A DNA stretch of 64,000 nucleotides, from positions 12,839 to 76,838 of the forward strand of contig DJVT01000009.1 of NCBI GenBank assembly GCA_002441305.1, read 5' to 3'. Position numbers and translations under genes: made by a program. Under the pieces are notes generated by a model. The model worked only from the letters and a program-made list of their open reading frames with translations, was not told where the DNA came from and ran no database searches. Source of the DNA: Candidatus Omnitrophica bacterium UBA6249. Its GTDB lineage: Bacteria; Omnitrophota; Gorgyraeia; Gygaellales; Profunditerraquicolaceae. The first letter of the stretch is position 1. Every line of letters starts with the position of its first letter. Positions 749 to 59,705 of the stretch are shown one piece after another.

Positions 749-1660
749 ATGAGGAACGATGTAAAGACGCGCGAATTCAACATTCTGGTAATCGAGGACG
801 ATGACAGAACATACAATACCATAAAGCAGGCTTTGATAAGCCCAGAGTATAAACTGCACAGAGTAACCAGCGGGGAAGAGGCGCTCAGGCTGGCCAAAGA
901 AGGGTATTTCGTCGCGATCATCACCGAGGTGCAGATCGGGGATATGAACGGGATAGAGCTTGTCCGCCGCCTGAGAAAGCTGGATCAGCGCATAAATATA
1001 ATCGGGCTTACCGTGTACGCTTTCGTCAATCTTGCGGTAGAGGCGATGAAGGAAGGGGTATATTCCTACCTGTTAAAACCTCTAAACACGGAGGAGCTGA
1101 ATTTGGTGGTGAGGCGTTCCATAGAGAACACTTTTCTTCTTATCCAGGCCGGGCAGAGGAAATATTACCAGGATATCGCCACTATGGACGGGCTTACCGG
1201 GGTATATAACCACCGCCATTTCCATGAGATGCTTGATTGGAATATCTCGCACTTGAACCGTTCCCCCCAGGCCTTCTCCCTGTTTATTATAGATATCGAT
1301 GATTTCAAGAAATATAACGATACCAAAGGGCATGTCGAAGGGGATAAGATATTGCATAATTTTGCCCAGCTTCTTGTCGCCTCTACCCGGGACAACGATA
1401 CGGTTTTCAGGTACGGGGGCGAGGAGTTTGCGGTAATCCTTTCCCAGACCGACCAGTGGGCGGCCCAAAAGGTGGCCGAGAGGCTGCTTGTCATAGTAAG
1501 GAGCAGGATGCCGGTAACCATGAGTATGGGGTTGGCCAGTTTCCCGATGAACGCGCAGGTAAAAAGCGACCTGGTTACCCGCGCCGACAAAGCGCTTTAC
1601 CGGGCGAAGGCGAGCGGCAAAAACAGGCTATGCACTTATGACGCGGGTTTAGACAAATGA
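749..1660 (+). CDS. Response-regulator receiver + GGDEF diguanylate cyclase
   Basis: N-terminal CheY-like receiver (VIEDDD, LLKP). C-terminal GGDEF domain with intact GGEEF and an RxxD I-site (RDND, 5 residues, GGEEF). Glu aligns where the phospho-acceptor Asp is expected (IITEVQIGDMNG). Confidence 0.85.
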   Translation: MRNDVKTREFNILVIEDDDRTYNTIKQALISPEYKLHRVTSGEEALRLAKEGYFVAIITEVQIGDMNGIELVRRLRKLDQRINIIGLTVYAFVNLAVEAMKEGVYSYLLKPLNTEELNLVVRRSIENTFLLIQAGQRKYYQDIATMDGLTGVYNHRHFHEMLDWNISHLNRSPQAFSLFIIDIDDFKKYNDTKGHVEGDKILHNFAQLLVASTRDNDTVFRYGGEEFAVILSQTDQWAAQKVAERLLVIVRSRMPVTMSMGLASFPMNAQVKSDLVTRADKALYRAKASGKNRLCTYDAGLDK

Positions 1661-1869
1661 AAAACTTTACCATTATTCTGATAATGCTGATCAGTACCCT
1701 GGGGCCTTCGGCGGTAATTGCGGCGGTGGGTTTTTCCGGGGTGAAGGCTATCGGCAGGAACCCTTCGGCTTCTCCGAAGATCCTGATTTCGATGATCCTG
1801 GCGTTTGTTTTCGCCGAGGCGATAGCGGTGATCGGGCTTTTGGTGGTTTACAACTTATTCGGGCAGTAA
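1657..1869 (+). CDS. atpE: F-type ATPase subunit c
   Basis: 70-aa two-helix hairpin with polar loop GRNPSA and a helix-2 carboxylate (FAEAIAV). Start overlaps the upstream stop (ATGA). Confidence 0.8.
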   Translation: MKNFTIILIMLISTLGPSAVIAAVGFSGVKAIGRNPSASPKILISMILAFVFAEAIAVIGLLVVYNLFGQ

Positions 1870-1942
1870 CCGGTTTGCGTTTCGGCAGGGATTGCCCCCG
1901 GGCGCGGTATCGGTTGGAAAGTTCGAAAACAGAGGAGCGGAC

Positions 1943-2701
1943 ATGCTGGTATGGCAGATAATCCTTATACAAATCGCTACTTTTACCCTGATCGTATTGT
2001 TTTTACGCTGGTTGCTTTATAGCCAGATCAGCCACGCGCTGGATAGGCTGCAAAGGCTCAACCAGCAGAATATGGAAAAAGAAAAGGCTTTGAAAGAGGA
2101 GTTCGAAAGAGCCAGGAAGCAGACGGAGATAGAGATACAGCGCGGCAAGGTCGAGGCCGAGAACATAAAAGAACAGGCCAAGGAAGACGCTGAAAAGACC
2201 AGGAGAAACCTGTTGGAATCCTCGAAAGACGAGGCAAAGAGGATCGTCAACGAAGGGGTAAGGGACAGCCAGAGGAAGTACAATGACCTGCTCCTTGAGA
2301 TGCAGGATAAGGCAGTTTACCTGGCGGTGGATATAGTAAAATACATTTTTACCGAAAGGATCCGTAAGAGCCTGCATTCCCAGGTTATCGAAGAATTGAT
2401 CGAGGATGTGGCCAGGCTGGACAAAGAGAAGATCAGGGCGCAGGGGGATAAAGCGGAGATTGTCTGCGCTTACAGCCTGGATGAAGGACAGAAGGAGCGC
2501 TTGCGCCAGGCGCTATCCAATAAGCTTGAGCGCAATATCGTGCTGGAAGAGACGCTCGACCCAGATGTGGTGGGAGGATTGATCATAAGATTGAGCGGAT
2601 TCGTGGTCATCGACGGCAGCATCAGGAATAAATTCAAGAGGATACTCCCGATGATGAAAGATAAGGCCAGGGCGGGGGTCGAACAGGCCGGGAAGGCTTA
2701 A
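1943..2701 (+). CDS. atpF: F-type ATPase subunit b fused to a delta (OSCP)-like C-terminal domain
   Basis: N-terminal TM helix plus a long charged coiled coil (b-like). The last ~65 aa align with the delta/OSCP C-terminus (VVGGLIIRLSGFVVIDGSIRNKFKRI). ATG 1943 is preceded by AGAGGAG. The ORF is open from 1892, but that extension looks non-coding. Confidence 0.7.
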   Translation: MLVWQIILIQIATFTLIVLFLRWLLYSQISHALDRLQRLNQQNMEKEKALKEEFERARKQTEIEIQRGKVEAENIKEQAKEDAEKTRRNLLESSKDEAKRIVNEGVRDSQRKYNDLLLEMQDKAVYLAVDIVKYIFTERIRKSLHSQVIEELIEDVARLDKEKIRAQGDKAEIVCAYSLDEGQKERLRQALSNKLERNIVLEETLDPDVVGGLIIRLSGFVVIDGSIRNKFKRILPMMKDKARAGVEQAGKA

Positions 2702-4201
2702 ATGCAGGAAATCAATTTAACCCCGTTAGAAATAAAAGACGTGGGGACGGTCAGGGAGATTAAGGGCGGGGTCATCAAGATAGACGGCCTTACGTCCTGC
2801 GTAAACGGTCAGTTGATCGAACTGGCCCCTGACCTGATGGGCATGGTCATCGGTTTCACCAAGAAGGATGTGCTTGTATTGGTTCTTGGCGATGAGAACA
2901 AGGTCCATATAGGGGATACCGTGTATGGCGAAGAAGGCGTTTTCGAGATCCCCGTAGGCAGTAATTTTCTCGGCAGGGTAGTCAATACCTTCGGCCAGCC
3001 GCTTGACGGCAAGGGGAAGATTGAGGGGGTAGACACTTATCCTATATTCAGGAGCGCTCCCGGAGTATTGGACAGGACTCCTATCGTCGAACCTTTTCTT
3101 ACCGGCACAAAGATAATCGATACCTGCATACCTTTGGGCAAGGGGCAGAGGGAGTTAATCCTGGGAGACCGGGTTACCGGCAAGACCACCCTGGTGATAG
3201 ACGCGATCATAAACCAGAAAGGGAAGGATGTAATCTGTATTTACTGCTGGATAGGCGGCAGCCAATCGGCCTTCCTGAAGATCATGGAGCAGCTTAAAGC
3301 CAGCGGCGCCCTGGAATGGACTATCGTGGTTACCGCTTCCGCTTCCGCGTCTCCGGCTGAACAATACCTTGTGCCTTACGCCGCCTGCGCGCTGGGCGAG
3401 TATTTCATGGACCACGGGCGCGACGTATTCTGCGCTTTCGATAACCTGAGTCGCCACGCCTGGATTTACCGCGAGATATCCCTGCTTCTGGAAAGGAGCC
3501 CGGGAAGAGAAGCTTACCCCGGGGATATATTCTATATCCATTCCCAGCTTATGGAAAGGGCAGGCAAGCTCAACGAAGAAAAGGGCAGCGGTTCGATGAC
3601 CTTCCTGCCGATCGTGGAAACCCAGGAAGGGGATATCACCGGCCTGGTGCAGTCCAACCTTGTCTCCATAACCGACGGGCAGATATACCTGAGTTCATCA
3701 CTTTTTAACGAAGGTTTCCGTCCGGCCATAGACCTGGGCCTTTCCGTCTCCCGTATCGGCAGCAAGGTGCAGTGCGATGCCATAAAAAAGGTGAGCCGTT
3801 CTTTGAAACGGGAGTTTGCCCAGTTCAAGGAATTGGCCGCGCTTACTACCATCAGGACCAAGCTTTCCCCGGAAATCGAACTCAGGCTTAAAAAGGGCCA
3901 GACCTTGAAGGACTTCCTGATCCAGGATAAGTCTAAACCGCTTTGCGTAGAGGAGATGATCGTGCTTTTCTATGCTTTCAGCAAGGAGCTTCCGCAGATA
4001 CTCGAGGAGTCGCAAAGGAGCAATTTCAAAAACAATATATACCCTTACCTGCTCAAGCATCATTCGGATATAATCGAGGAGTTGACCATCCAAAAGCTCC
4101 TTACCGGTGGGATAGAAAGAGGGCTGGACAAGGCCTTTGAGGATTTCTTCTCTGATTCCGAGGAAGAGAGCCAGGTTGTCCAAGAGCAGGAGGCGCAATG
4201 A
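2702..4201 (+). CDS. atpA: F1 ATPase alpha subunit (divergent)
   Basis: P-loop GDRVTGKTT. Conserved blocks SLLLERSPGREAYPGDIFYIHSQLMERA and PIVETQEGDITGLVQSNLVSITDGQIYL. Confidence 0.85.
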   Translation: MQEINLTPLEIKDVGTVREIKGGVIKIDGLTSCVNGQLIELAPDLMGMVIGFTKKDVLVLVLGDENKVHIGDTVYGEEGVFEIPVGSNFLGRVVNTFGQPLDGKGKIEGVDTYPIFRSAPGVLDRTPIVEPFLTGTKIIDTCIPLGKGQRELILGDRVTGKTTLVIDAIINQKGKDVICIYCWIGGSQSAFLKIMEQLKASGALEWTIVVTASASASPAEQYLVPYAACALGEYFMDHGRDVFCAFDNLSRHAWIYREISLLLERSPGREAYPGDIFYIHSQLMERAGKLNEEKGSGSMTFLPIVETQEGDITGLVQSNLVSITDGQIYLSSSLFNEGFRPAIDLGLSVSRIGSKVQCDAIKKVSRSLKREFAQFKELAALTTIRTKLSPEIELRLKKGQTLKDFLIQDKSKPLCVEEMIVLFYAFSKELPQILEESQRSNFKNNIYPYLLKHHSDIIEELTIQKLLTGGIERGLDKAFEDFFSDSEEESQVVQEQEAQ

Positions 4202-5094
4202 TCCCATTGACCATATTGCGCAAGGATCTCGCCTTTAACAAGGTAATGGAGAGCATTATCGATGTTTTGAAAGGCGTGGCCGCAACCGAGTATTTTCATC
4301 TCCAGAGCAAGAGAAAGAGTTTCGATGAGTTTGAGGCTTACCTGAGGGACATCTTTGCAATGGTGGATATAAATAATTTCCAGCATCCTTTTCTGGGCGG
4401 GGTCTCGGGAGGCAATAATATTATCCTGATTACCTCCGACAGCGGGTTTCTCGGCGAACTCAACATGTCGGTGGTAAATTACGGCCTGGCGCAGTACAGG
4501 AGCGGGGATACGCTTACGGTCGTGGGCAACGAAGGGGCGCGGTATATAAGCGAGAATGAAGCCAAGTATAAGAGTTTCCCGGGGATTGACGACGATATTT
4601 CTTATGACCTGGTGTTAAAACTCAGGGAGCATATAATCAAGGAGTTTACGAGTAAGAAGTTAAGCAATACCGTGATCATTTATCCGCATTTCGTTTCTTT
4701 CTCGGTGCAGAAAATAGAGCAATTCCAGCTTTTTCCCTGCCGTTTCTTGTTTCCCCAGGCCGCGCTGTCCGAAGGCTCCCATGGTAGGAAACCGGGCCTC
4801 TGGGAGATAGACCCTGAAGACAAGGTCGTGCTGGATTCTCCGCTTAAAGTGACTGTGGAGTACCTGGTGAGAATATGGATCGGACAGCTCCTGCATCTCA
4901 TATTCTGGGAGAGCAAACTTTCGGAGTGGGCGGCCAGGGTCATGCACCTGGAGCGGAGTACCAATGAGATCAAGGACCAGCAGAAGAAGCTGAGGCTTCA
5001 GTATTTCAGGACCATGCACGAGAGAAGCGACAAAAGCACCAGGGAAATCTTTGTGAGCAGGATGGCCTTGATCAAGACCGGGGCTATAGTGTAG
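4198..5094 (+). CDS. atpG: F1 ATPase gamma subunit (divergent)
   Basis: 298 aa in the gamma position between alpha and beta. Helical N- and C-termini, with a C-terminal LRLQYFRTMHERSDKSTREIF block resembling the gamma C-helix. ATGA overlap with atpA. Confidence 0.65.
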   Translation: MIPLTILRKDLAFNKVMESIIDVLKGVAATEYFHLQSKRKSFDEFEAYLRDIFAMVDINNFQHPFLGGVSGGNNIILITSDSGFLGELNMSVVNYGLAQYRSGDTLTVVGNEGARYISENEAKYKSFPGIDDDISYDLVLKLREHIIKEFTSKKLSNTVIIYPHFVSFSVQKIEQFQLFPCRFLFPQAALSEGSHGRKPGLWEIDPEDKVVLDSPLKVTVEYLVRIWIGQLLHLIFWESKLSEWAARVMHLERSTNEIKDQQKKLRLQYFRTMHERSDKSTREIFVSRMALIKTGAIV

Positions 5095-5115
5095 TTTTAT
5101 AAAAAGGGGGCAGGG

Positions 5116-6528
5116 ATGCAGCAGATGGGGAAAGTGGTTTCGGTACAAGGGCCAATCGTGGACGTGGAGTTTCCTCCCGATGTGTTGTTCCCCGCCGTTT
5201 ACGATATTATCGAGACCACTACTTTTGACGGGCAGAGGATAGTGCTCGAGGTAGTCGAGTATTTGAGCAAGGCGGAAACGGATAAGAATAATACCATGAG
5301 ATGCATCAGCCTTACTCCGAATTTCGGCCTGCGCAGGAACGCCAAGGCGGTCGCCACCGGTTCGACCATCTGTGTGCCGGTAGGTGAAAAGACCTGTTCC
5401 CGGATCCTTAATGTACTGGGAGAACCGCTGGATAAGGGCGGGCCCGTGGATGTGACGCCGGATATGACCCGGCCTACCCACCGTAACCATACTATTCCTA
5501 CCGTAGATACGAGCGAAGGCAAAGAGAAGAAATTCGAGGTGATGCAGACAGGGATCAAAATGTTCGATCTGCTTTTCCCCCTGATCAAAGGGTCGCGGAA
5601 CGGGATCCTGGGAGGCGCGGCCTGCGGCAAGAGCGTTATCATACTTGAGCTTATGCACAATATCATCAAGATGCAGAAAGGCTACTGCGTGTTTACCGGA
5701 GCGGGAGAGAGGACCAGGGAGGGTAATGAGCTTTATTACGAGATGGAGAAGCAGGGCATCCTGAACAGGGCGGCGCTTGTTTTCGGGCAGATGAACGAGT
5801 CTCCCGGGGCGAGGTTCGAGATCGTGCACACCGGCCTGACGCTGGCGGAGAATTTCGCCGAGGGCGGGGATGACGTGCTTCTATTCGTGGACAATGTTTA
5901 CAGATTCGCCCAGGCGGGTACCGAGCTTTCCACTCTTTTGGGCAGGATCCCCTCGGAGACCGGTTACCAGCCGACGCTTCCCTCGGAGATGGCCGAGTTC
6001 CAGGAACGCATACGTTCCCAGGGGCAGTCATCGATTACCGCTATGGAGGCCGTATATGTGCCTTCCGACGACCTTACCGACCCGGCGGTAGTCTGTATCT
6101 TCAGTTATCTGGATTCTATCGTTATTTTGTCCCGCCGCTACGTACAGTTGGGGCTTTTCCCCGCTATCGACGCCTTGACTTCTTCATGTTCATTCCTTGA
6201 TCCGATGATTATCGGTAAGAGGCATTTCAAGACAGCCCAGGATGTCTTGAGAATACTCAACCGTTACGAGGAACTCAGGAGGATAGTAGCTATCGTGGGG
6301 GTGGAGGAACTTTCCGGAGGGGACAGGATTATATTCGAACGCGCGCAGAAACTGCAGAATTTCCTTACCCAGCCGTTTTTCTGCGCGGAGGCTTACACCG
6401 GGAAAAAGGGGGAGTATGTTTCCTTGGACGCTACGCTGGAAGGCTGCGAAAGGATAGTCAGCGGACAGGTGGATAAAGTCCCTGCGGAAAAATTTTATAT
6501 GATCGGGGCCCTGCTGGAGAATCCTTAA
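5116..6528 (+). CDS. atpD: F1 ATPase beta subunit (divergent P-loop)
   Basis: GGAACGKS P-loop, [11 protein letters not shown] catalytic block, Walker B DVLLFVDN, and [13 protein letters not shown]. The DELSEED region reads EELSGGD. Confidence 0.85.
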
Positions 6529-6590
6529 AAGGCCGTCTGCCCAGGGCTTTGGGCCTAAAATCCCGGCGGTGAAAACAGGAGAAGGAAAAG

Positions 6591-8306
6591 ATGATTAAAA
6601 TCGGACAGATACTGATGGATAAGGGACTGGTTACTCCTGAACAGATGGAGATCGTTATCCAGGAGCAGGAGAGGACCGGCGAGCCGCTGGATACCATCCT
6701 GGTGAAAAAGAATTTCCTGAGCGAGGAGAGCTTCCTGAAAGTGCTCTCGGAACAGTTCAATATCCCGTTCATCAGGCTGAAGGAGACTTCTATCGACCCC
6801 CAGGCGGTAAAGAAGGTGCCGGCGAAGTTCGCCTGGTATTACAAGGTGATGCCGGTAAAATTCTCGGATAACAAACTGGTGATCGCATCCTCGGATCCCT
6901 TGCGCTCTCTGGATGATTTGAGGATATTCCTGGGGTATGATTTAAGCCCCGCCCTGGCCTCGGAGGCTGAAATCATGGAGGTGATCAAGGAGAACTACGG
7001 GGTTGGCGCAGAGACGGTGGAAGGGATAATCGCCAAGGCCCCCAAGGAGACCCCGGCGGCAAAGGAGTCCGGGGGCAAGATCGAGGACATAGAGAAGATG
7101 GCCGAGGATGCCTCGGTAGTCAAGCTGGTCAACCAGATAATCCTCGAGGCTTACGAAAAGAGGGCGACCGATATACATATCGAGCCGTTCCGGGGGAAGA
7201 TGAACATAAGATACCGTATCGACGGCGTGCTTTATAACGCTAACGTCCCGGCGGACATCGAGCGTTTCTTTTTGGCTATTGTCTCGCGTATAAAGATTAT
7301 GTCCCGGCTCAATATCGTTGAGCGCCGCCTCCCGCAGGACGGGCGCGCGGTTATAAAAATAGGCAGCGAAGAGCTGGACCTGAGGATTTCGATTATCCCC
7401 ACGCGTTACGGCGAAGGAATGGTAATAAGGATCCTGCCTATGAGTATGCTTTTCAGCCTGGAGCGCCTGGGTCTGGCGCCGGAGGACCTGGAGACCCTGG
7501 CGAAATTGATCAAGAAGCCGCACGGGATCATCCTGGTCACCGGGCCTACCGGCAGCGGAAAGAGTACTACGCTGTACGGATGCCTGAACGAGATAAAAAG
7601 CAGCCGGAACAAGATCATTACTATCGAGGACCCTATAGAATATGAGCTGGAGGGGATTACCCAGATACAGGTCATCCCGGAGATAGGTTTTACTTTTGCC
7701 CAGGGGTTAAGGAGCATATTGAGGCATGACCCGGATATCATGATGGTGGGCGAAATCAGGGATTTCGAGACAGCCGAGCTGGCCATCAGAAGCGCCTTGA
7801 CCGGGCATTTGGTTTTTTCTACCTTGCACACCAATGATGCCGCCGGAGCGGTCGCCAGGCTTTTGAATATCGGCATAGAGCCTTACCTGGTTGCCTCTTC
7901 CGTGGAGGCGTTTATCGCCCAGAGACTGGTGCGGCTTATCTGCCCCCAGTGTAAGCAGATAGACGAGAATGTCCCCGAGAATATAAGGACGATAATAAAA
8001 CAGGATATCGAGAGCAGCAAGTTCGGACGGGAGCATATAAAAGTTTCCGACTTCAAGATTTACAAGGGCCGCGGGTGCAAGGAATGCAATTTTACCGGGT
8101 ACAAAGGCAGGACGGCTATCCATGAGATCCTGGTTGCGGATAAGGGGATAAGGGATTTGATGCTGCGCAAGGCTTCTACTGATGAGCTGCGCGAGAAGGC
8201 GGTAGATGAAGGGATGAAGACCCTGCGCATCTGCGGGTGGAAAAAGATGATCGACGGCCTGACTACGCCCGAGGAGATCCTCAGGGTGACCCAGTCGGAG
8301 GAATAA
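6591..8306 (+). CDS. gspE: Type II secretion / type IV pilus assembly ATPase (GspE/PilB family) with N-terminal T2SSE_N (MshEN-like) domain
   Basis: Walker A GPTGSGKST, Asp/His boxes, and a tetracysteine region (CPQC...CKEC). The N-terminal ~110 aa resemble the T2SSE_N fold. Confidence 0.85.
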   Translation: MIKIGQILMDKGLVTPEQMEIVIQEQERTGEPLDTILVKKNFLSEESFLKVLSEQFNIPFIRLKETSIDPQAVKKVPAKFAWYYKVMPVKFSDNKLVIASSDPLRSLDDLRIFLGYDLSPALASEAEIMEVIKENYGVGAETVEGIIAKAPKETPAAKESGGKIEDIEKMAEDASVVKLVNQIILEAYEKRATDIHIEPFRGKMNIRYRIDGVLYNANVPADIERFFLAIVSRIKIMSRLNIVERRLPQDGRAVIKIGSEELDLRISIIPTRYGEGMVIRILPMSMLFSLERLGLAPEDLETLAKLIKKPHGIILVTGPTGSGKSTTLYGCLNEIKSSRNKIITIEDPIEYELEGITQIQVIPEIGFTFAQGLRSILRHDPDIMMVGEIRDFETAELAIRSALTGHLVFSTLHTNDAAGAVARLLNIGIEPYLVASSVEAFIAQRLVRLICPQCKQIDENVPENIRTIIKQDIESSKFGREHIKVSDFKIYKGRGCKECNFTGYKGRTAIHEILVADKGIRDLMLRKASTDELREKAVDEGMKTLRICGWKKMIDGLTTPEEILRVTQSEE

Positions 8307-8309
8307 AGA

Positions 8310-8549
8310 TTGTTCAAGACCTCGGTGCTCGATATCAAAACCGCTTCCGTCGTCTTCCAGGGGCTGGTTTCTTCGGTGACCCTTCCCGGAGAAGAGGGGG
8401 AGCTTTCCCTCCTGGACTTTCATGAACCGATCATTATCTGCCTGAAGGAAGGCGCGGTGAAGATAGATGACAATTCTCCTATGCCCATAAAGAGCGGCAT
8501 CGCGAGCATGAAAAATAATGAGCTGATAATGCTGCTGGAGAAAAAATAA
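8310..8549 (+). CDS. atpC: ATP synthase epsilon-like protein, N-terminal beta-sandwich domain only
   Basis: 79 aa, TTG start. LDIKTASVVFQGLVSSVTLPGEEGELSLLDFHEPIIICLKEGAVKI aligns by eye with E. coli AtpC [47 protein letters not shown]. No C-terminal helical hairpin. Confidence 0.6.
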   Translation: MFKTSVLDIKTASVVFQGLVSSVTLPGEEGELSLLDFHEPIIICLKEGAVKIDDNSPMPIKSGIASMKNNELIMLLEKK

Positions 8550-8550: not shown

Positions 8551-9783
8551 ATGCCGTTATTCGCCTATAAAGCAAAAAAGGGCCCGCAGGAGATCGTGGA
8601 AGGGGTTGTTGAAGCCGGCTCCAAAGAGATAGCCGTGAGCAAGGTCGAGCAAATGGGTTATGTGCCCATACGTATCGAACCCAGGGGTGCCGGTGGCCAG
8701 AGCCAGCCTGTCAAGGCGCCTGTTTCGAAAGAGCCGGGATGGTTTGACAGGATAGGCTCGCGCGATTTGAACGTATTTACCGAACAGCTGGCTACGCTGG
8801 TAAAATCGAAGGTCCCGCTTTTTGAAGCAATAAACATTTTGTCCTCCCAGACGGAAAATCCAAAACTCAGGAATATAGTCGTATCTATAGCCGGGGACCT
8901 GAAAGACGGGAGGACTTTTTCGGAGGCTTTAAGCAGGTACCCGCATGTTTTTCCGCTCCTTTACGTGAATATGGTGCGTTCCGGGGAATCGGGGGGCGTG
9001 CTTGATGCGACGCTTACCAGGCTCGCCAAATTCAGAGAGGAGCAGGAGGAGATAAAGGCGAACATCACCTCAGCCCTGGCTTATCCCATATTTATAATTG
9101 TGGTAGGGATCCTGGTAGTGATAGTCCTGCTCACTTACGGCATTCCCCGTCTTGTCACGATGTTCAGCGAGACTAAACAAGTTCTGCCTCTTCCTACGCG
9201 GATACTTATCTCCATAAGCGACGGGATCAGGCATTATTGGTATCTTGGCATACTGCTCCTGTTTTTTATTTTTTCGGCGTTTAGGCAGAAGCAGCTCGCT
9301 GAAAAGAAAAAGGCCTTCCTCGACAGGATCAAATTGAGACTGCCTCTCCTGGGCGCCTTTAACAAAAAGGCTATGCTCGCGGAGTTCACGCGTACTTTTG
9401 CCTTGCTGCTGGAAAACGGAGTCCCCGTGCTGGAGGCTCTCCAGATAACCATCCCTACGATCAATAACGAGGTATTCCGGGTTGAGCTGGAGAAGGTGCA
9501 TGGCGATCTGCTTGTGGGCACGCCTCTTTCCCAGGGGATGAAAAAGTCAGACTGGTTCCCTCCGTTCCTTACCGACATGATAGCCGTAGGGGAAAGGGGA
9601 GGGAATCTGCAGGAGGTCCTGCTGGAAGTAGCGGTATTCTATGAACGCGAGGTAAAGAAGATAAATAAAATCTTGACCTCGTTGCTTGAACCGGCGATAA
9701 TCTTGGTTATGGGGATTGTGGTAGGGTTCATCGTGATGGCGATGCTCCTGCCCGTATTCGAGATAAATATGGGTATCAGATAA
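8551..9783 (+). CDS. gspF: Type II secretion / T4P platform protein (GspF/PilC family)
   Basis: 410 aa with a duplicated T2SSF-type cytoplasmic domain and three TM segments. Sits immediately downstream of the ATPase. Confidence 0.85.
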   Translation: MPLFAYKAKKGPQEIVEGVVEAGSKEIAVSKVEQMGYVPIRIEPRGAGGQSQPVKAPVSKEPGWFDRIGSRDLNVFTEQLATLVKSKVPLFEAINILSSQTENPKLRNIVVSIAGDLKDGRTFSEALSRYPHVFPLLYVNMVRSGESGGVLDATLTRLAKFREEQEEIKANITSALAYPIFIIVVGILVVIVLLTYGIPRLVTMFSETKQVLPLPTRILISISDGIRHYWYLGILLLFFIFSAFRQKQLAEKKKAFLDRIKLRLPLLGAFNKKAMLAEFTRTFALLLENGVPVLEALQITIPTINNEVFRVELEKVHGDLLVGTPLSQGMKKSDWFPPFLTDMIAVGERGGNLQEVLLEVAVFYEREVKKINKILTSLLEPAIILVMGIVVGFIVMAMLLPVFEINMGIR

Positions 9784-9803: not shown

Positions 9804-10220
9804 ATGAGAGAGAAAAAAGGTTTTACCCTTATAGAACTTATGCTTGTTGTGGTCATTATTGGAGTCTTGGGGGCGATGGTCTTGCCGCGGCTTGCCGGGC
9901 GCTCCGACCAGGCTAAAACGGCGGTAGCTAAGTCCGATATAAACGCAAATATCGCCACTGCCCTTGACCTTTATGAGCTGGATAACGGGCGGTATCCCAC
10001 TACCGAACAGGGTTTGAGCGCGTTATCGACCAAGCCGGGTGACCTGTCCGAGGGGGCAAACTGGAATGGGCCCTATCTTAAGAAGGAGCCGCTTGACCCA
10101 TGGGGCAAGGCTTATCAGTATAAAAATCCGGCTACCCATGAAGGAGAGGATTACGATTTATATTCCATGGGAGCCGACGGCATAGAGAGCGATGATGATA
10201 TCGGAAATTGGGAAAAATAG
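9804..10220 (+). CDS. gspG: Major pseudopilin GspG
   Basis: Prepilin signal KKGFTLIELMLVVVIIGVL with Glu+5. GspG-type C-terminal block DPWGKAYQYK. Confidence 0.85.
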   Translation: MREKKGFTLIELMLVVVIIGVLGAMVLPRLAGRSDQAKTAVAKSDINANIATALDLYELDNGRYPTTEQGLSALSTKPGDLSEGANWNGPYLKKEPLDPWGKAYQYKNPATHEGEDYDLYSMGADGIESDDDIGNWEK

Positions 10221-10593
10221 AGCTTTTACTTTGATAGAGATAATGGTTGCCGTGGCCATCCTGTCGATGGGGTTGATTTTTGTGCTCCAGGGGCTTACCA
10301 AGTGCCTCGGGGTATTGAATACGGCGCGCTGCAGCCTTGAGGCAGGGCTTCTCGCAGAGGAGAAGATGGCGGAAGCGGAGATATCTTTCAGGAACGAAAA
10401 GAATGCCGCATTTACGGGTTTAAGCGGGCAGTCGGAAGCGGGAAACGTAGAATTCAGCTGGCAGGTAGGATTAGAGAGCGATGCGGAATACGACAACCTT
10501 TATCTGGTGCGCGATACAGTCCGCTGGAGAGAGGGGAAAAGAAGCGGGATAACCCCTTTGGTCACTTATTTTATGTCCGTAAATGTCAAGTAA
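10192..10593 (+). CDS. Minor pseudopilin (GspI/GspH-like)
   Basis: N-terminal KNRAFTLIEIMVAVAIL prepilin-type signal (Ala at -1). ~130 aa. Exact start uncertain. Confidence 0.5.
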   Translation: MMISEIGKNRAFTLIEIMVAVAILSMGLIFVLQGLTKCLGVLNTARCSLEAGLLAEEKMAEAEISFRNEKNAAFTGLSGQSEAGNVEFSWQVGLESDAEYDNLYLVRDTVRWREGKRSGITPLVTYFMSVNVK

Positions 10594-11200
10594 ACGCAGG
10601 CGCGGCATGAAGGGCAAGGGTTTTACCCTGCTTGAACTTATTATCAGCGGAGCGATAATCGTCCTGGTGTCGGTTACCGTATATTCCGTCTTCTCCGGTG
10701 GTATCGCGGTCTGGAAAAAGGCCTATCTTGCCCGGAATCAGGGGCACAAGTTGAGGCTGGCCATCGATAAGATGAGTGTGGAGGTAAGGAATTCTTTCCG
10801 GTTTTCTTCCATACCTTTCGAAGGCACAGAAGACTCTGTTTCTTTTCCTTCTGTCTGCGAAGGGAACGTAAGCAGGGTAAGCTATTTTCTGAATGAAGAT
10901 AAGGTTTTTTGCCGCGCGGTGGAGAGTTATGCGCAGGTTTTTAAAAAGGATGAGCAGGGGAGCGTCTATGCCATTTTGTCCCCGGTGGCGGAGTTGAAGT
11001 TCAGCTATTGTTATCTTGATAACGCCAGCGGGGAATACAAATGGAAGGACGACTGGGTCAGGGATGAACAGGATACCCTGCCCCGGGCGTTGAGGGTAGA
11101 GTTGTTTTTCGGAGAGAAAGCCGGGGAAGAAGCCGATCTTGTCAAGACTATCTTTATCCCCATCGGCACGGGGGGACAGAAGAAGGAGCTTGTGCAATAA
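10583..11200 (+). CDS. Minor pseudopilin (GspJ-like)
   Basis: KGKGFTLLELIISGAIIV prepilin-type signal. ~200 aa, in the position between the I-like and K genes. An alternative ATG lies a few codons downstream. Confidence 0.45.
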   Translation: MSSKRRRGMKGKGFTLLELIISGAIIVLVSVTVYSVFSGGIAVWKKAYLARNQGHKLRLAIDKMSVEVRNSFRFSSIPFEGTEDSVSFPSVCEGNVSRVSYFLNEDKVFCRAVESYAQVFKKDEQGSVYAILSPVAELKFSYCYLDNASGEYKWKDDWVRDEQDTLPRALRVELFFGEKAGEEADLVKTIFIPIGTGGQKKELVQ

Positions 11201-12237
11201 TGCTTCTTACCGGGAAAACAAAGGCTTATTCTACCCGCGCAAGCATACTGATTATCGTATTGTGGATCCTGGCTTTTTTGACCATGCTTGTGGTGAATCT
11301 GGGCTTTATGGTCAGGTCGCAGCTGCAGTTTGCCAGGCACCTCCAGGACAGGATGAAGATGTATTATCTTGCGCGGGCCGGCATAGAAAGGGCGATTGTC
11401 GAATTGTACGAGGATGAAAGCCCGAGCTGCGATACGCTCAACGAGACCTGGGCGAATAATGGCGAGTTCTTCGATAGTTTCCAGTTGGGCGGGGGGTTCT
11501 TTACCGTCAGTTATCCCTCCGGGGGCAAAGACCAGGAGGACGAAGACGCTTTCGTGCTTTACGGGGCGATGGATGAAAGCGCAAGGATAGATATAAACAG
11601 CGCGCAGGAGGATATAATAGTTAATTTGCTTGAGCGCGTGGGCGGGATGGATAAGGAGGACGCCATAGATACGGCGCGCTGTATCGCAGATTGGCGCGAT
11701 AAAGATGTCGCGCTTTCCGTGGGAGGGGCGGAGAACGATTATTACCAGGGGCTTTCTTCGCCCTATGAGTGCAAAAACGGCAAATTCCAGGTGGCCGAAG
11801 AGTTGCTTTTGGTTAAAGGGATGAGCGAAGAGGTTTTTTCCAGGATCAAGGATGTGATTACAGTGTATGATACCGAAAAAGTCAATATCAATACCGCCGG
11901 GTTTAAATGCCTGTATGCCCTGGGGCTGGAAAGCGGGCTCTGCGAGGATATAATCGAATACAGGAACGGGGGAGACGGAGTCCCGGGCACGGAGGATGAC
12001 CCGGTTTTTAATTCGCCTTCGGAATTGATGAATATTGGTTCTTTATTCACGGAAGAAGCGGCACAGATAAACACCTTGGTCTCGCGGAATATACTTACGG
12101 TGAGGTCAGATACCTTCAGGATTATCTCTTTGGGCCAGATGAAGGATGACAGCGCCACGCGTTCCAGGCAGATCGTCTGCGTGCTCAAGCGCCAGAATAC
12201 CAAGGATCCTAAAATATTATATTGGCATGAAAATTGA
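11200..12237 (+). CDS. gspK: Minor pseudopilin GspK-like
   Basis: N-terminal hydrophobic helix ASILIIVLWILAFL without Glu+5, ~345 aa, a DESARIDINSA block and helix-hairpin-helix-like repeats typical of GspK. Confidence 0.65.
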   Translation: MLLTGKTKAYSTRASILIIVLWILAFLTMLVVNLGFMVRSQLQFARHLQDRMKMYYLARAGIERAIVELYEDESPSCDTLNETWANNGEFFDSFQLGGGFFTVSYPSGGKDQEDEDAFVLYGAMDESARIDINSAQEDIIVNLLERVGGMDKEDAIDTARCIADWRDKDVALSVGGAENDYYQGLSSPYECKNGKFQVAEELLLVKGMSEEVFSRIKDVITVYDTEKVNINTAGFKCLYALGLESGLCEDIIEYRNGGDGVPGTEDDPVFNSPSELMNIGSLFTEEAAQINTLVSRNILTVRSDTFRIISLGQMKDDSATRSRQIVCVLKRQNTKDPKILYWHEN

Positions 12238-13729
12238 CCTGAACAACATATTTCAAAAACAAGAAAAAATCGTCACCGTCCTTCAGATGGACAATAACTG
12301 GCTGAGGCTTATCCAGGTAAAACAGATCAAGAAGGATAAAAAGGTCTGCATGATCAAGGCGCTGGGGATTTCCTCTTTGCCTGATGAGGAGATCTCGCGC
12401 AGGGTCACCGGGCTGGCCGCAGAGCTCAAGATAAACTCCCGTTACCTGGTCCTTTCCGTGCCCAGGCACCTTACCACTACCAGGAATCTGGATCTCCCTT
12501 CTGCCAATCCCTCGGAGATAAAAGATATGATCGAGCTCCAGATCGGCAAGCAGACTCCATATGCCAGCGACGAGGTAATCAAGGATTACCAGATTCTGGG
12601 AAGCAACGCGGACGGTTATAGCAGCGTGCTCCTGGTTATTGTGCATAAGGATATAGTCTCCAGGTATTTCAAGATCCTGGAGAACGCCGGGCTCAAGGTG
12701 CAAAAGGTAAGTTTCAGCTCGGAGGGGCTGCTCAACTGGAAAAACCTGGTCTGCCGGGACAAGGTGCCCTCGGACAAGGTGCAGATCCTCATAGACGTGG
12801 ATTGCGATACCAGCGATTTCGAGGTCGTGCTTAATGAAAAACTGGTTTTCGGCAGGAGCATATCCCTGGGGATTTCGCAGTTCCCCGGGCAGATCGAACA
12901 ATGGCAGAAGAAGTTTATCGAGGAGATAGGGCATTCCATATACGCCTACCAGAACGAGATTACGGGCAAGGAGGTGGCCAAGATAATCATCAGCCGCCCC
13001 CGCCTTCTCGCGGACAGCCTGGATAAAGAAACGCTGGAGAAAGAGCTTGGCGCTCCCGTGGAGATAATGGACCAGTTTAAGGGCATCCCCCTGACCGAAG
13101 AGGGGCTGGTTTCTTACAATAACCTGGTAAGGACCGACCTGTCTTACGCCGGGTTGATCGGGCTCGGGCTTCCCGCCGGGGAGCACAAGATCGACCTTAT
13201 CCCCCAGGAGCACCAGATCGGCAGGGCGGTTAAGGAGAAGGGGAAAGACCTGTATCTTATGGGCATACTGCTTGTCTTCATACTGGTTGCCGTATCCGGC
13301 GTATTCCTCGGCAGGATGTATAACAAGGAAAGGTACCTTGGGCAATTGAAGCGCCGCCTGGCGGATATACAGTCCAAGACCAAGGAATTGAACGGGATGA
13401 TCCGCGGCATAGAAGCGATAAAAGAAAGGGTTTATACGCGGGGCAGCGCGTTGAACCTGATTTATGAGGTCCATAAGGCGCTTCTTCCGGAGATGCACTT
13501 GACCTCGATAAGTTTCGAAGGCAAAGAAGAGATGACCTTAAGAGGCCAATCCAACGAGATGTCCGAGGTGTTCAGTTTTGTCAGCAAGCTGGAGGAGTCC
13601 GGGTATTTCCAGAATGTCAAGTCCAAGTACGCCACAAAGCGCAAGGTAGGGGATAAAGAGGTAACCGAATTCGAGATATCCTGTCCCCTGGAGAATAAAT
13701 ACAAGATAAAGGACAAGTACGAACTTTAG
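12227..13729 (+). CDS. GspL-like assembly protein (PilM-type actin-like domain + TM + PilN-like periplasmic part)
   Basis: The in-frame ATG at 12227 overlaps the gspK stop. N-terminal PilM-like ATPase fold, then a single TM (LYLMGILLVFILVAVSGVFL), then a C-terminal alpha/beta region. The ORF is open from 12146, but that part overlaps gspK. Confidence 0.55.
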   Translation: MKIDLNNIFQKQEKIVTVLQMDNNWLRLIQVKQIKKDKKVCMIKALGISSLPDEEISRRVTGLAAELKINSRYLVLSVPRHLTTTRNLDLPSANPSEIKDMIELQIGKQTPYASDEVIKDYQILGSNADGYSSVLLVIVHKDIVSRYFKILENAGLKVQKVSFSSEGLLNWKNLVCRDKVPSDKVQILIDVDCDTSDFEVVLNEKLVFGRSISLGISQFPGQIEQWQKKFIEEIGHSIYAYQNEITGKEVAKIIISRPRLLADSLDKETLEKELGAPVEIMDQFKGIPLTEEGLVSYNNLVRTDLSYAGLIGLGLPAGEHKIDLIPQEHQIGRAVKEKGKDLYLMGILLVFILVAVSGVFLGRMYNKERYLGQLKRRLADIQSKTKELNGMIRGIEAIKERVYTRGSALNLIYEVHKALLPEMHLTSISFEGKEEMTLRGQSNEMSEVFSFVSKLEESGYFQNVKSKYATKRKVGDKEVTEFEISCPLENKYKIKDKYEL

Positions 13730-13735: not shown

Positions 13736-14269
13736 ATGGATTTTTTGTCACGTTTGTCAAAAAAAGAAAAGCGCCTGTTCTACATAACGGTGGCAGTGGT
13801 CGCCCTGGTTTTGTTCGACAGGGTAGTATTCAGGCCGGTGATGGAGAAACTCGACGACCTCAACGAGAAGATTTCTATCGAGGAGAAGAAGCTCGAGAAG
13901 TCCATGCTCATAATTGCCCAGGATGCAACGATAAGCGAGGAGTATAAGAAGTTCGCCCAAAGCATAAAGCAGGAGCAGTCCGATGAAGAGGCGATAGCCG
14001 GGCTGCTCAGCAGCATCGAAAAGATGGGCAAGAGCGTCGCCGTTTTCATACAGGATATAAAGCCTAACGCGGTGGATAAATCGGAATTCTACAAGAAATA
14101 TTCCGTCAAGATTGAGGCGGAGACAAAAATTAGCAACCTGGCTGATTTTATCTATCAGCTGGAGAATTCCCCGCAGCTGCTCAGGGTTTCCGATTTCCGC
14201 CTTACCCCGCAGAAAAAGGAAGGTCTCCTTAAGGTCAATATGACGGTTACCGAAATCCTGATAAATTAA
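13736..14269 (+). CDS. GspM/PilO-like bitopic membrane protein
   Basis: 177 aa with one N-terminal TM and a coiled coil. The call rests on its position after the L-like gene; no strong motif. Confidence 0.35.
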   Translation: MDFLSRLSKKEKRLFYITVAVVALVLFDRVVFRPVMEKLDDLNEKISIEEKKLEKSMLIIAQDATISEEYKKFAQSIKQEQSDEEAIAGLLSSIEKMGKSVAVFIQDIKPNAVDKSEFYKKYSVKIEAETKISNLADFIYQLENSPQLLRVSDFRLTPQKKEGLLKVNMTVTEILIN

Positions 14270-29276: not shown

Positions 29277-29395
29277 CCGGGATTATTTTAATTGCTAAAA
29301 GCGTATCCGGTTTGTATAATGGTTGAAATGCCTGCCTTGCGCAGGCTTAATTGTCGGTAGGGGTATTTGCCGGGAGGATTGGTTGGAGCGTGCTG

Positions 29396-30937
29396 ATGTT
29401 TAAAGGTCGAAGAAGGCGTATTACTTGTATCGATTTCGGCGGTTCATTCGTGAAGACCGCCTGCGTGGAGGTGGAAAAGGAAGCCTACCGGCTGCTCTCT
29501 TATGATATAGAAGAGTTCGATACGAGCTCTTCCGGGGAGCAGGAGATAGGTGCTTTCATTCTACGGTCTTTGAAGAAGTGTCCGGGGTTTGGCAGGAATA
29601 CCTTTATCAGTATCTCCGGCCCTGAAGGTTTTTTCGTCAAAAAGATGCTTCTTGCGCACGCTTCCAAAGACAGGATGATCAGTTTGGCAAAGCGCCGGAT
29701 CAAGGCGGAGATCCCTTTTGATTGCGAGGACATCCTGGCGGACCTGCAGATTATCCGCGAGTCACCCGCAGGCGGAAGGTCCAGAAAAGCCGAGGCCTAC
29801 TGTTTATTCGTCAAAAAGGATACGGTAGATAAGTATGTTTCTGCCTGCAGGGAATGCGGGCTTGTCCCCAGGAAGGTTTCCACCAGTATATTCAATTATT
29901 GCGGGATACTGGGGTCGCTTTTTTCTCTGCCGGAAACCAGCGCAGTTCTCGATATAGGCAATACCCATTCTTACCTTTCCATATACCGGGGGAGCAGGCT
30001 GAGTTTTGCCAAGAGCCTGGATTTTTCGGTTTCCCGGCTTTGCGGTTCGCTATGCGGTACCGTGAATACGGAAAACGGGGATGTGGAGATAGATTTTGAA
30101 AAGGCTGAACGCCTGGTGCGTTCGGAAGGATTGTTTTTAGGCGGAGAAGAAAAGGAGCTTGCCGAAGGGGTAAAAACCGGGCAACTTGCCAAGCTTATGC
30201 TTCCTTTGCTTGAAAAGGTTTCCCGGGAGGTATGGGAGCTGCTTTCCTCTTTTGCCTCAGAGCCGGGGTCATCGATGCCGGAGACCCTGTATATTACGGG
30301 GGGAGGGGCAGGTTTAAAGAACGCCGGGCAGTATTTCAACAGCAAGATAAACATAAAGGTAGAGAAGCTTCCTCTTCCCGGGACTCTCGATATCAGGGAA
30401 GTGGACGCGGAGAAGTTTTTTTTGGACGCAAGCCGGCTTTCCAGCGCGATCGGGCTTGCCATGCGTTACCCGGGAATAAACCTGATATCCATGGAGCTCA
30501 GGAAAGGGATGTTCAGGTCTCTTCGCCTGTGGCTGGTACGCATCTTTCTGATTTCAGCGCTGGCTGTTTCCATGTTTTTTTGGATCAGGAGGAATACTCT
30601 TATCGACGAACAGAATGGGCGGGCCGGCGCAGGACAGCGCGCGGTTGCGGATGGGGAGGTTTCTCCTGAGCTCTCCCGCACCGGAGCGTTGCTTGAGATG
30701 GTCGGTTCGGTAATCCCGGCGGGAGTGGCGCTTGATAAGTTCGAATTTGACCGCGCCCGCTGCCTTATGCGTATCGGAGGCACGGTTTCACCGGGCGGGG
30801 ACAGGGGGAGGGAAACCCTTGCTGGCTTTATCGGGGAATTGGAGAATATGGAGCCTGTTTTGCAAGCCAAACTTTCTTCTTTCAGGAGGAAGGGCCGGGG
30901 GAGCAAGTTTGAGATAGAGTGTTCCCTGAGAGAATAA
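29396..30937 (+). CDS. PilM-like actin-fold protein fused to TM + PilN-like region (second GspL-like paralog)
   Basis: ITCIDFGGSFVKTA, VLDIGNTHSYLSIY and LYITGGGAGLKN phosphate-binding-like blocks. TM segment LWLVRIFLISALAVSMFFWI. Start taken at the ATG 45 nt into the listed ORF. Confidence 0.55.
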   Translation: MFKGRRRRITCIDFGGSFVKTACVEVEKEAYRLLSYDIEEFDTSSSGEQEIGAFILRSLKKCPGFGRNTFISISGPEGFFVKKMLLAHASKDRMISLAKRRIKAEIPFDCEDILADLQIIRESPAGGRSRKAEAYCLFVKKDTVDKYVSACRECGLVPRKVSTSIFNYCGILGSLFSLPETSAVLDIGNTHSYLSIYRGSRLSFAKSLDFSVSRLCGSLCGTVNTENGDVEIDFEKAERLVRSEGLFLGGEEKELAEGVKTGQLAKLMLPLLEKVSREVWELLSSFASEPGSSMPETLYITGGGAGLKNAGQYFNSKINIKVEKLPLPGTLDIREVDAEKFFLDASRLSSAIGLAMRYPGINLISMELRKGMFRSLRLWLVRIFLISALAVSMFFWIRRNTLIDEQNGRAGAGQRAVADGEVSPELSRTGALLEMVGSVIPAGVALDKFEFDRARCLMRIGGTVSPGGDRGRETLAGFIGELENMEPVLQAKLSSFRRKGRGSKFEIECSLRE

Positions 30938-30953
30938 ACAGGAAGGAGAAGCT

Positions 30954-31361
30954 ATGAGTAAAAAAGGCCTTGCTTGGGTTGAGATAATCATCATGTTTGC
31001 CGTGGTAATTTTGTTGTCGGCGACCCTGATTCCGCACCTGGCGGATTTTTCGAATAATTCGGAAACGGCCAAGTCCGTATTGCGCAAGCTCTCTACCGCC
31101 GCGGAAAATTATGCCGTTTCCCATAAAGGGACCTATCCTTCCGATGTAGTAGAGCTTTCCGGCTTCATGCCGTTGGCAGGCAATTACTGCGCCAATGCTT
31201 CCGGGACCTCTACTATCGTGGGCGAATACAGCTATTCATGCATATTGACTCCCGGAGGGTACTCTTTCTCCGCGGGTATCGATTCCGGAGAGGACGAGCG
31301 GGAGGGGCTATGTACCGTTACTACCGGGGGGATATTCACTCCATTTCCATCTTCGCGCTGA
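30954..31361 (+). CDS. Atypical type IV pilin/pseudopilin-like protein
   Basis: N-terminus MSKKG/LAWVEIIIMFAVVILL has Gly then Glu at +5, but Leu at +1. The AENYAVSHKGTYPSDVVEL block resembles GspG-type pilins. Confidence 0.4.
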   Translation: MSKKGLAWVEIIIMFAVVILLSATLIPHLADFSNNSETAKSVLRKLSTAAENYAVSHKGTYPSDVVELSGFMPLAGNYCANASGTSTIVGEYSYSCILTPGGYSFSAGIDSGEDEREGLCTVTTGGIFTPFPSSR

Positions 31362-31529
31362 AGCGCCGGTACTGTCCGTATTCAGCGCAGAAGGCCTTCC
31401 ACCTAATTGTTTCTGGGGCAAAGAGTTAATAAAAAACCCTGCGCAATACTCCAAGGAAAAATTGGTTGCTAAAAAACCCCTTTATGCTAAAATTAAGAGA
31501 TAAGTTTTATCTTTAGAGAGGGAAGGAAT

Positions 31530-31943
31530 ATGCTCGGAAAAAAAGCGCGGAGTTTCGTGACTATAATGATCATTGTGGGTTTAAGCGCCCTGCTGCTGCG
31601 TACTGCAATCCAGAAGCTGATCGTTTATAACGTAGAACGCAATCAGTCGATAGCCCAGGTGAACCTCAAGCTTTTTTATACCGCCCTGGAGAATTACGCC
31701 AAGGACAATAAAGGGGTTTACCCGGACAACATCAGCCAGCTTACCAAAGGCAGCCCGGTTTATCTGGAGAGGGATTATCTGGCGGTATCTTCGGTGAGAG
31801 GGTATGAGTATGAATGCCGGCGCATGGATGCGGCTGGATACAACTGTTCGGCCGAGCCGGTTAATTGCAACCTTACGGGCCAGAAGATTTATACCATGTC
31901 CACCGGAGGGTTGATCATCACCGAGGATTGCGATAAAAAATAA
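31530..31943 (+). CDS. Pilin-like protein with degenerate signal
   Basis: Hydrophobic N-terminal helix FVTIMIIVGLSALLL without Gly-1 or Glu+5. Shares the LENYAKDNKGVYPDNISQL block with the preceding gene. Confidence 0.3.
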   Translation: MLGKKARSFVTIMIIVGLSALLLRTAIQKLIVYNVERNQSIAQVNLKLFYTALENYAKDNKGVYPDNISQLTKGSPVYLERDYLAVSSVRGYEYECRRMDAAGYNCSAEPVNCNLTGQKIYTMSTGGLIITEDCDKK

Positions 31944-44626: not shown

Positions 44627-44700
44627 CCGGAGTATTTCTTTTACAACTTTATATAAATCAACGGATTACATAAACTGTCTACGGAGCTGCGGAGCAGGGG

Positions 44701-47483: not shown

Positions 47484-47487
47484 AAAA

Positions 47488-49204: not shown

Positions 49205-49211
49205 ATAAATA

Positions 49212-49240
49212 TTGACAGGGAGAGGGGATGAAAGTAAGAT
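49212..49240 (+). promoter_or_regulatory. Possible sigma70-like promoter for the 49272 gene
   Basis: TTGACA (49212..49217), 17-nt spacer, TAAGAT (49235..49240), just after the R outer box of unit D. Confidence 0.35.
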
Positions 49241-49271
49241 AAATAAATAAACTTTAGCTAAGGGCAGATAG

Positions 49272-50638: not shown

Positions 50639-50653
50639 AGCATACACAAAGAT

Positions 50654-52291: not shown

Positions 52292-52292
52292 A

Positions 52293-53051: not shown

Positions 53052-53082
53052 CCAGAAATTTCTTTATTTTCCTTCGTATAGT

Positions 53083-53163
53083 GGTATAATATTACCCATT
53101 GTTCTTAATATGGTATTTCTTTTCTAACCACTTAGTTTTGTTTAAGTTACATACTTTATTTAC
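53083..53163 (+). repeat. Degenerate copy of the two-box repeat at the start of the glycan island
   Basis: Inner-like TGGTATTTCTTTTCTAAC at 53111..53128, a 17-nt linker, then GTTACATACTTTATTTAC at 53146..53163 (first 8 and last 3 nt match the outer box). A possible left-inner remnant GGTATAATATTACC lies at 53083..53096. Confidence 0.3.
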
Positions 53164-53184
53164 TGGACTAAATTTGGGGGATAG

Positions 53185-54144: not shown

Positions 54145-54157
54145 TTTTTTGTTCGAT

Positions 54158-56487: not shown

Positions 56488-56496
56488 AAGGAAGAT

Positions 56497-57489: not shown

Positions 57490-57496
57490 CTTCTCC

Positions 57497-58207: not shown

Positions 58208-59689
<1,482 letters not shown>

Positions 59690-59705
<16 letters not shown>

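Follow-up and report, generated by a model that had tools for sequence, protein, structure and literature searches.

The stretch of DNA examined here comprises 64,000 nucleotides of contig DJVT01000009.1 (positions 12,839 to 76,838; assembly GCA_002441305.1) from Candidatus Omnitrophica bacterium UBA6249, and is referred to below as the window. From its start to position 14269, all genes lie on the + strand and form a single unit in which genes for the subunits of an F-type ATPase are combined with genes resembling those of a type II secretion system (T2SS). The unit enters the window inside a Peptidase_MA_2 gene, whose 3' part occupies 1-725 (Pfam match, HEIGH motif); next comes a diguanylate cyclase consisting of a receiver (REC) and a GGDEF domain (749-1660; Pfam). 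The F-type genes then encode a c subunit of 70 aa (1657-1869; PF00137), a 252-aa fusion of subunits b and delta (1943-2701, with 1943 as the true start; PF00430 and PF00213), an alpha-like subunit of 499 aa (2702-4201; TIGR00962), a divergent gamma-like subunit of 298 aa (4198-5094; PF00231) and a beta-like catalytic subunit of 470 aa (5116-6528; TIGR01039), which is identical to protein P0001. A GspE/PilB-type assembly ATPase of 571 aa (6591-8306; PF00437 and the MshEN domain PF05157) is interposed between the beta gene and the gene for epsilon, a protein of 79 aa holding the beta-sandwich domain only (8310-8549; PF02823).

The remaining genes belong to the T2SS-like set. They encode, in order, a GspF/PilC platform protein (8551-9783; PF00482, and 370 bits with TIGR02120), the GspG pseudopilin (9804-10220), an H/I-like pseudopilin (10231-10593), a J-like pseudopilin (10607-11200), the GspK pseudopilin (11200-12237), a GspL-like fusion of PilM and PilN (12227-13729) and a GspM-like protein matching PilO (13736-14269). 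The pseudopilins were assigned from Pfam matches and the gene calls of L027, a sequence of the same genome with more left flank (window coordinates equal those of L027 minus 4885), and the last two proteins likewise from Pfam and gene calls. Content and order therefore read GspE, GspF, pseudopilins G, H/I, J and K, and then L-like and M-like proteins. The scores of GspE and GspF fall slightly under the equivalog cutoffs of their hidden Markov models (HMMs), and neither the secretin GspD nor GspC nor a prepilin peptidase was found in the cluster, in the scanned open reading frames (ORFs) of the window or in related loci. In the window, the gene after the T2SS-like block encodes a chorismate-binding enzyme. 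A second small filament module lies at 29351-31943, where a PilM-PilN-like fusion of 528 aa precedes a pair of pilin-like ORFs (30954-31361 and 31530-31943), with neither an ATPase gene nor a platform gene adjoining.

The spacing of these genes is tight. The epsilon gene starts 3 nt 3' of the GspE gene and ends 1 nt 5' of the GspF gene, the GGDEF and c genes and the alpha and gamma genes overlap by 4 nt each, and other neighbours overlap or are mostly no more than 62 nt apart (the c gene ends at 1869 and the b-delta gene starts at 1943). Terminator-like sites are not enriched inside the unit (15 observed versus 17.5 expected). An Rfam search gave 0 matches, so that no c-di-GMP riboswitch or other RNA was found, and no tRNA genes were found. 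The F1 and c genes are thus interleaved and translationally coupled with genes of T2SS or type IV pilus type. The initial annotation of this DNA, which was made from the sequence by itself, had described an F1Fo gene set spanning 1657-8549 behind a diguanylate cyclase. Its ATPase genes and the position of the cyclase directly before the c gene hold good, but the 571-aa GspE/PilB protein inside that span had been overlooked and the unit runs on to 14269; GspE, GspF, the pseudopilins and the link to c-di-GMP, all of which escaped it, provide the decisive context.

The two large F1 subunits are close to those of genuine F-type enzymes. Alpha scored 543 bits against the atpA model TIGR00962 (cutoff 484), and beta scored 541 bits against the atpD model TIGR01039 (cutoff 463). 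Alpha carries the P-loop GDRVTGKTT and the arginine finger SVSRIG, and beta the P-loop GGAACGKS, the motif YVPSDD and, in the region usually called DELSEED, EELSGGD. The P-loop strings and that of the DELSEED region had been reported exactly in the initial annotation, which took the P-loops as a sign of a divergent enzyme; the divergence turned out to be mild. The Walker A lysine of beta is retained, with threonine replaced by serine throughout the family (GGA[AG][CL]GKS), and alignment to the E. coli and Bacillus chains, a check that had been proposed at the outset, demonstrated that the GERxRE motif, the Walker B aspartate and the adenine-binding tyrosine of beta and the arginine finger of alpha are kept. 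The hydrolytic chemistry thus appears intact, every catalytic residue being retained in the sequence. The DELSEED box is degenerate across the family. Gamma is very divergent (68 bits against TIGR01146, cutoff 194), and of the 1.84 billion cluster representatives searched with it, only 224 matched at E<=1e-10; therefore, the family is distinct and modest in size.

Reductions have affected several of the parts that join or regulate F1 and Fo. The N-terminal tail of alpha, which normally binds delta, is 6-17 residues long in place of the usual ~25. As had been proposed, a separate delta gene is missing and the b-like protein ends in a delta/OSCP C-terminal domain: the chain consists of one transmembrane (TM) helix, a long stalk helix and this domain, the delta N-terminal bundle is missing, and 72 homologues have the identical architecture. 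In an AlphaFold2 model (mean confidence, pLDDT, 87.6), residues 2-135 form one helix, which is followed by a short second helix and, at 170-251, by an alpha/beta domain that Foldseek superposed on delta/OSCP C-terminal domains and on the mycobacterial b-delta chain. The best b-type HMM was that of the N-ATPase b subunit (TIGR03321, aligned over 5-238 of 246), which also points to a delta-like C-terminus. Epsilon, correctly recognized beforehand as being reduced to its N-terminal sandwich, has 75-82 aa in every family member, and its C-terminal helices are gone. Loss of this domain removes a brake on hydrolysis in established F1Fo regulation. Judged from the sequences, the delta N-domain, the alpha N-terminal tail and the epsilon C-domain have been lost throughout the family. 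The c subunit retains its GRNPS loop and its membrane glutamate (AFVFAE).

Subunit a, with which the c ring of a canonical enzyme exchanges ions, was searched for in several ways. Pfam scans of nearly all large ORFs of the 64-kb window gave no match to ATP-synt_A (PF00119) or AtpI, and a hydropathy scan of the window revealed just four ORFs with three or more TM segments, namely an MFS protein, CbiM, a small neighbor of CbiM, and CbiQ. The absence of atpB and atpI from the window, as initially claimed, was thereby borne out, since neither scan found a candidate. Canonical operons keep atpB next to atpE. None of the related clusters contained an a-like gene or an ORF with five or six TM segments, and their only polytopic protein is GspF. 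A conserved neighboring protein, termed protein X below, was considered as a divergent subunit a and rejected, since apart from its signal peptide it shows a single TM segment, at the C-terminus, and not five or six. In the TM helices of b-delta and protein X, we saw no universally conserved arginine or lysine that could point to a substitute stator.

Several features place the unit under a c-di-GMP layer of control. The diguanylate cyclase carries a GGEEF motif and an RxxD inhibitory site, which are conserved in all homologues compared; the phospho-acceptor position of its receiver domain is a glutamate (AIITE) throughout the clade of the window and an aspartate in the homologue of the related locus L019. 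The GGDEF gene lies directly before the c gene throughout the window's clade (L001-L011) and before the epsilon gene in L019. The N-terminus of GspE contains an MshE-type c-di-GMP-binding motif (NF053729, 57 bits versus a cutoff of 38). In the subclade of L015 and L016, the C-terminal part of beta itself is made up of MshE-type c-di-GMP-binding modules of 53 residues in tandem. Betas with four modules scored 251-253 bits with NF053729 in 4 stretches (L015:3378-5585 and L016:4083-6314), and the database contains forms with 0 modules (461-464 aa), 1 module (531 aa), 2 modules (594-616 aa) and 4 modules (734-743 aa), proteins P0121-P0137 being those with 1, 2 or 4. These fusions are carried by many independent member sequences, and the clusters of these betas have up to 76 members. 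By sequence motifs, the predicted c-di-GMP layer therefore comprises the GGDEF enzyme of the operon, the MshEN domain of GspE and the beta-fused modules of one subclade, and a housekeeping ATP synthase would hardly be expected to have a c-di-GMP receptor fused to its catalytic beta subunit.

The arrangement is not peculiar to this genome. A beta scan of one genome per species gave 24 loci, and further loci were fetched via identical proteins; altogether, the set without subunit a is joined to the T2SS-like set, with rearrangements, in ~30 loci whose betas are 52-100% identical to that of the window. GspE follows beta in all loci that extend that far. In L001-L013, which are metagenome-assembled genomes of Omnitrophota with some Planctomycetales labels among them, the gene order is identical to that of the window and beta is 84-91% identical. 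In L015-L019, L030 and L031, the order is epsilon, c, b-delta, alpha, gamma, beta and GspE, followed by the same T2SS genes reordered, with betas 52-59% identical to that of the window (57-59% in L015-L019). Between the window and its relatives, nonsynonymous divergence (dN) is 0.03-0.25 and synonymous divergence (dS) is saturated, which indicates strong purifying selection on every gene. Recurrence in ~30 independently assembled loci means that the set is due neither to chance nor to misassembly. The suggestion that atpB had been lost through misassembly is thus refuted.

Some loci depart from these patterns. At L014:12-3557, beta is 63% identical and is preceded by a Cache-HAMP-PAS histidine kinase instead of alpha and gamma; GspE still follows. 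The 3' end of the T2SS-like block is occupied by an SLT lytic transglycosylase in one subclade (L030:19474-20190 and L031:19365-20126) and by a Peptidase_S49 in L025 (L025:19345-20421). Several metagenome-assembled genomes bear conflicting labels (Planctomycetales, Nitrospiria/Nitrospirota and Binatia; L004, L005, L009, L015 and L016, and P0128, P0132 and P0151), which reflect either mis-binning or mislabelling, or occurrence of the system outside Omnitrophota.

The genes to the left of the cluster are also conserved. In each locus with enough flank, a very large ORF on the cluster strand ends directly upstream; it lies left of window position 1 (L027:3-4691; counterparts at L025:1-4887 and L030:1-5549) and measures at least 4216 aa in the window's genome, 4674 aa in L025 and at least 4621 aa in L030. 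The large ORFs of different subclades are homologous (30-35% identity over 430-700 aligned residues), and Pfam searches with the last ~1600 aa gave no informative domain. Protein X (~265-300 aa), likewise found upstream wherever the flank is long enough, combines a signal peptide, a domain in the periplasm and a coiled coil with a TM segment at the C-terminus that ends in WHR or WHK, and it has no Pfam match. In L025, L030 and L031, which represent three subclades, and in L016 it has a gene of its own (L025:4907-5701; L030:5546-6367; L031:5476-6387), upstream of epsilon in the relatives, whereas the large ORF of the window's lineage carries it as a C-terminal fusion (tail of L027:3-4691). The full Peptidase_MA_2 gene, which starts 60 nt left of the window, encodes a protein of 261 aa that has a signal peptide and an FSAC sequence resembling a lipobox. 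In L017, as in the clade of the window, it flanks the cluster on the left, and it appears to be part of the unit because its orthologue in L025, on a contig of 1.99 Mb, is inserted between the b-delta and c genes.

Elsewhere in the window, an IS200-type Y1 transposase (43623-44315) is followed by a long sugar-nucleotide and glycosyltransferase island (44700-63232), in which G+C drops from ~50% to 34-44%; this drop suggests that the polysaccharide biosynthesis genes were acquired.

Loci of this type have been reported before. Seymour et al. (2023, Nat Microbiol; PMC10066038) described, in the parts of the article available to us, a 'symbiotic' or non-respiratory F-type ATPase homologue of Omnitrophota that adjoins type IVa pilus (T4aP) clusters, with co-location within 10 kb on 57 of 66 contigs and occurrence of the locus type in every class of the phylum. 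Their tree parts 'symbiotic' from 'respiratory' alpha subunits of Omnitrophota and places the Omnitrophota alpha near Mycoplasma-type ATPases. The window, with F-type alpha and beta genes less than 10 kb from type IV filament genes in an Omnitrophota genome, agrees with their locus definition, and genome 329 of that study (UBA6253, our L007; Velamenicoccia; Gygaellales; Profunditerraquicolaceae; Amyimicrobium) has the identical gene order and a beta 89% identical to that of the window. By gene content and location, the locus is therefore a member of the already published Omnitrophota 'symbiotic' F-type ATPase locus type. As far as its accessible parts go, a 2026 preprint that covers 176 complete genomes of Omnitrophota gave F-type alpha and beta in 125 and gamma in just 30 at strict thresholds, alpha and beta without a recognizable full complex in most genomes, and subunits of V/A-type ATPases in 70-99% of the class to which most of the 176 genomes belong. 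Within the available text of the article, the preprint and later literature, we found no mention of the absence of subunit a with c and b-delta kept, of the domain losses, of the beta-MshEN fusions, or of the neighborhood of large ORF, protein X and protease, nor, in that of the article, of a GGDEF gene in the operon. In those parts, the article treats alpha/beta phylogeny and co-location only, and it calls the partner T4aP, whereas the genes present here and their order (E-F-G-H-J-K-L-M) resemble those of a T2SS.

Compared with known systems, the complex combines features of several without coinciding with any. It shares with canonical F1Fo the alpha/beta catalytic pair, gamma, epsilon and a c subunit with a membrane carboxylate, and differs from it in that subunit a is missing from the window and related clusters, the delta N-domain is missing and the alpha tail is short. 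In the Mycoplasma type 2 and 3 F1-like ATPases (the M. mobile G1-ATPase and MSC_0618/0619), F1 alpha and beta were likewise recruited to a non-bioenergetic role, in surface motility or host interaction, but those clusters are without the c ring and b-delta stalk that are both present in the window. With the four HMMs of MMOB1660/1670 and MSC_0618/0619, the window proteins stayed far below the cutoffs (402 versus 600, 385 versus 850, 317 versus 520 and 369 versus 570), and in a PDB comparison, the Mycoplasma G1 beta reached 316 bits versus 400-463 bits for canonical betas. These HMM and PDB scores favor canonical F1 and disfavor a Mycoplasma-type relationship; the betas of L023 and L024, considered as intermediates to Mycoplasma-type ATPases, were rejected as such, being closest to canonical F1. 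The N-ATPase (atpDCQRBEFAG) resembles the locus in lacking a separate delta gene and in having a b subunit with a delta-like C-terminus, but it keeps subunit a and AtpQ/AtpR, has another gene order and is unlinked to secretion genes, and the window proteins fall below the N-type cutoffs (beta, TIGR03305, 476 versus 752; alpha, TIGR03324, 501 versus 750.5). The contrast in operon order with N-ATPases drawn in the initial annotation was correct, but this is not the pertinent comparison. FliI-FliH-FliJ and SctN-SctL-SctO likewise combine an F1-related ATPase, a gamma-like shaft and, in FliH, a tether resembling b plus delta in a secretion machine; FliI and SctN are homohexamers without alpha, epsilon or a c ring, whereas the window has separate alpha and beta genes, which scored 175-208 bits with FliI/SctN HMMs against cutoffs of 380-620. 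Mycobacterial b-delta, the best structural match of the stalk protein, also has b and delta in one chain, but it comprises ~440 aa with a complete delta including the N-terminal domain, compared with 252 aa and the delta C-domain only.

From the gene content, the interleaving, the conserved arrangement, the intact catalytic residues, the domain losses and the c-di-GMP layer, we consider it probable (at roughly 60%) that the locus encodes, instead of the cell's ATP synthase, an ATP-hydrolyzing, non-bioenergetic F1/c-ring module of a T2SS-like type IV filament machine. Such a complex would consist of alpha3beta3, gamma, short epsilon, a c ring and the b-delta stalk, and would be derived from F1Fo by the loss of subunit a. 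It would neither make ATP nor pump ions; ATP hydrolysis may turn gamma-epsilon and the c ring against the b-delta stalk, so that the complex would act as a c-di-GMP-gated mechanical module of the filament or secretion apparatus. The apparatus itself probably serves the large membrane-anchored protein, protein X and the zinc protease, and may enable the bacteria to attach to host cells or to attack them. A more specific proposal, that the F1/c-ring without subunit a is a c-di-GMP-gated, ATP-driven rotary motor coupled to the T2SS-like pseudopilus platform or to the surface protein of >4000 aa, is tentative and a good deal less secure. Of the two alternatives offered initially, a second, specialized ATPase or a lineage-specific variant with its subunit a encoded elsewhere, the former is the better supported, in view of the interleaving, the deep conservation, the findings in PMC10066038 and the commonness of V/A-type ATPases.

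Certain observations weigh against a non-bioenergetic module. Alpha and beta exceed the NCBI equivalog cutoffs for genuine atpA and atpD; the glutamate and the RNP loop of c are invariant in 22 loci (18 distinct sequences), and c is the best-conserved subunit, with the lowest dN in the cluster. This conservation of c would be expected if the ring translocated ions and had a stator as its partner. That the membrane glutamate of the c ring is kept without subunit a is the main fact for which the favored reading does not account. Furthermore, coupling of the F1/c-ring to GspF, GspL and GspM is deduced solely from gene order and shared regulation, and subunit a could be encoded at a distant locus, its absence being established for the 64-kb window and the related clusters. 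The invariant glutamate and the exceptional conservation of c therefore keep two alternatives alive, a distant subunit a and a non-homologous stator. Under the former, the locus would encode a real ion-translocating F-type ATP synthase or ATPase, and its placement among secretion genes would be due to operon shuffling or co-regulation. The c-ring glutamate and RNP loop, the intact catalytic residues, the alpha and beta scores and a beta equally similar to that of E. coli (48%) and to N-type betas are in keeping with this, but an a gene is never beside c in ~30 loci of at least three deep subclades, the delta N-domain, alpha N-tail and epsilon C-domain were lost together, c-di-GMP receptor modules are fused to beta, and the epsilon gene is flanked by those of GspE and GspF. 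In addition, the tree in PMC10066038 splits 'symbiotic' from 'respiratory' alpha, and among the three example genomes in the available part of its source data, one has only the alpha and beta KEGG orthologues of the F-type module. We therefore regard a bona fide ATP synthase as unlikely.

The other alternative is that the c ring still exchanges ions through a non-homologous stator contributed by the secretion machine or protein X; ATP and the membrane potential would then be coupled in a novel manner, for example, in a filament motor assisted by the proton motive force. The invariant glutamate and the highly conserved outer helix of c suggest that the ring has a conserved partner inside the membrane, and the single-TM proteins b-delta, X, GspL-like and GspM-like are always co-encoded with GspF. 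Such a stator, however, lacks precedent, and the conserved basic residue sought inside the TM helices of b-delta and protein X was not seen; this possibility thus appears more doubtful still than that of a distant subunit a. The lack of subunit a, of the delta N-domain and of the epsilon C-domain might be taken as a sign that an ATP synthase operon is decaying here or that the assembly is faulty. However, the ~30 independent assemblies come from several projects and have every gene intact, dN is far under the saturated dS for each gene and the catalytic motifs are invariant. Pseudogenization and misassembly were rejected on these conservation data, and the chance of either is negligible.

The F-type ATPase is a textbook machine whose c-ring rotor makes sense only with the ion channel of subunit a. 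The family described here keeps the ring, the carboxylate, the shaft and the stalk, whereas the channel has been dropped and the remainder has joined a secretion or pilus operon under second-messenger control. The locus type had been published only as a remark on gene neighborhood, and the present analysis sets out its anatomy, including the domain losses, the c-di-GMP modules of beta, the large protein, protein X and the protease. If the rotor reading is true, a rotary ATPase would have been recruited independently to mechanical work once more, after FliI of the type III secretion system and the Mycoplasma G1 motor, and this would be the first such recruitment to retain a c-ring rotor without an ion channel. 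It would thereby show the re-use of rotary ATPases for mechanical tasks, offer a natural test case for the function of a c ring without subunit a, and point to an apparatus by which ultra-small Omnitrophota may attach to or attack host cells.

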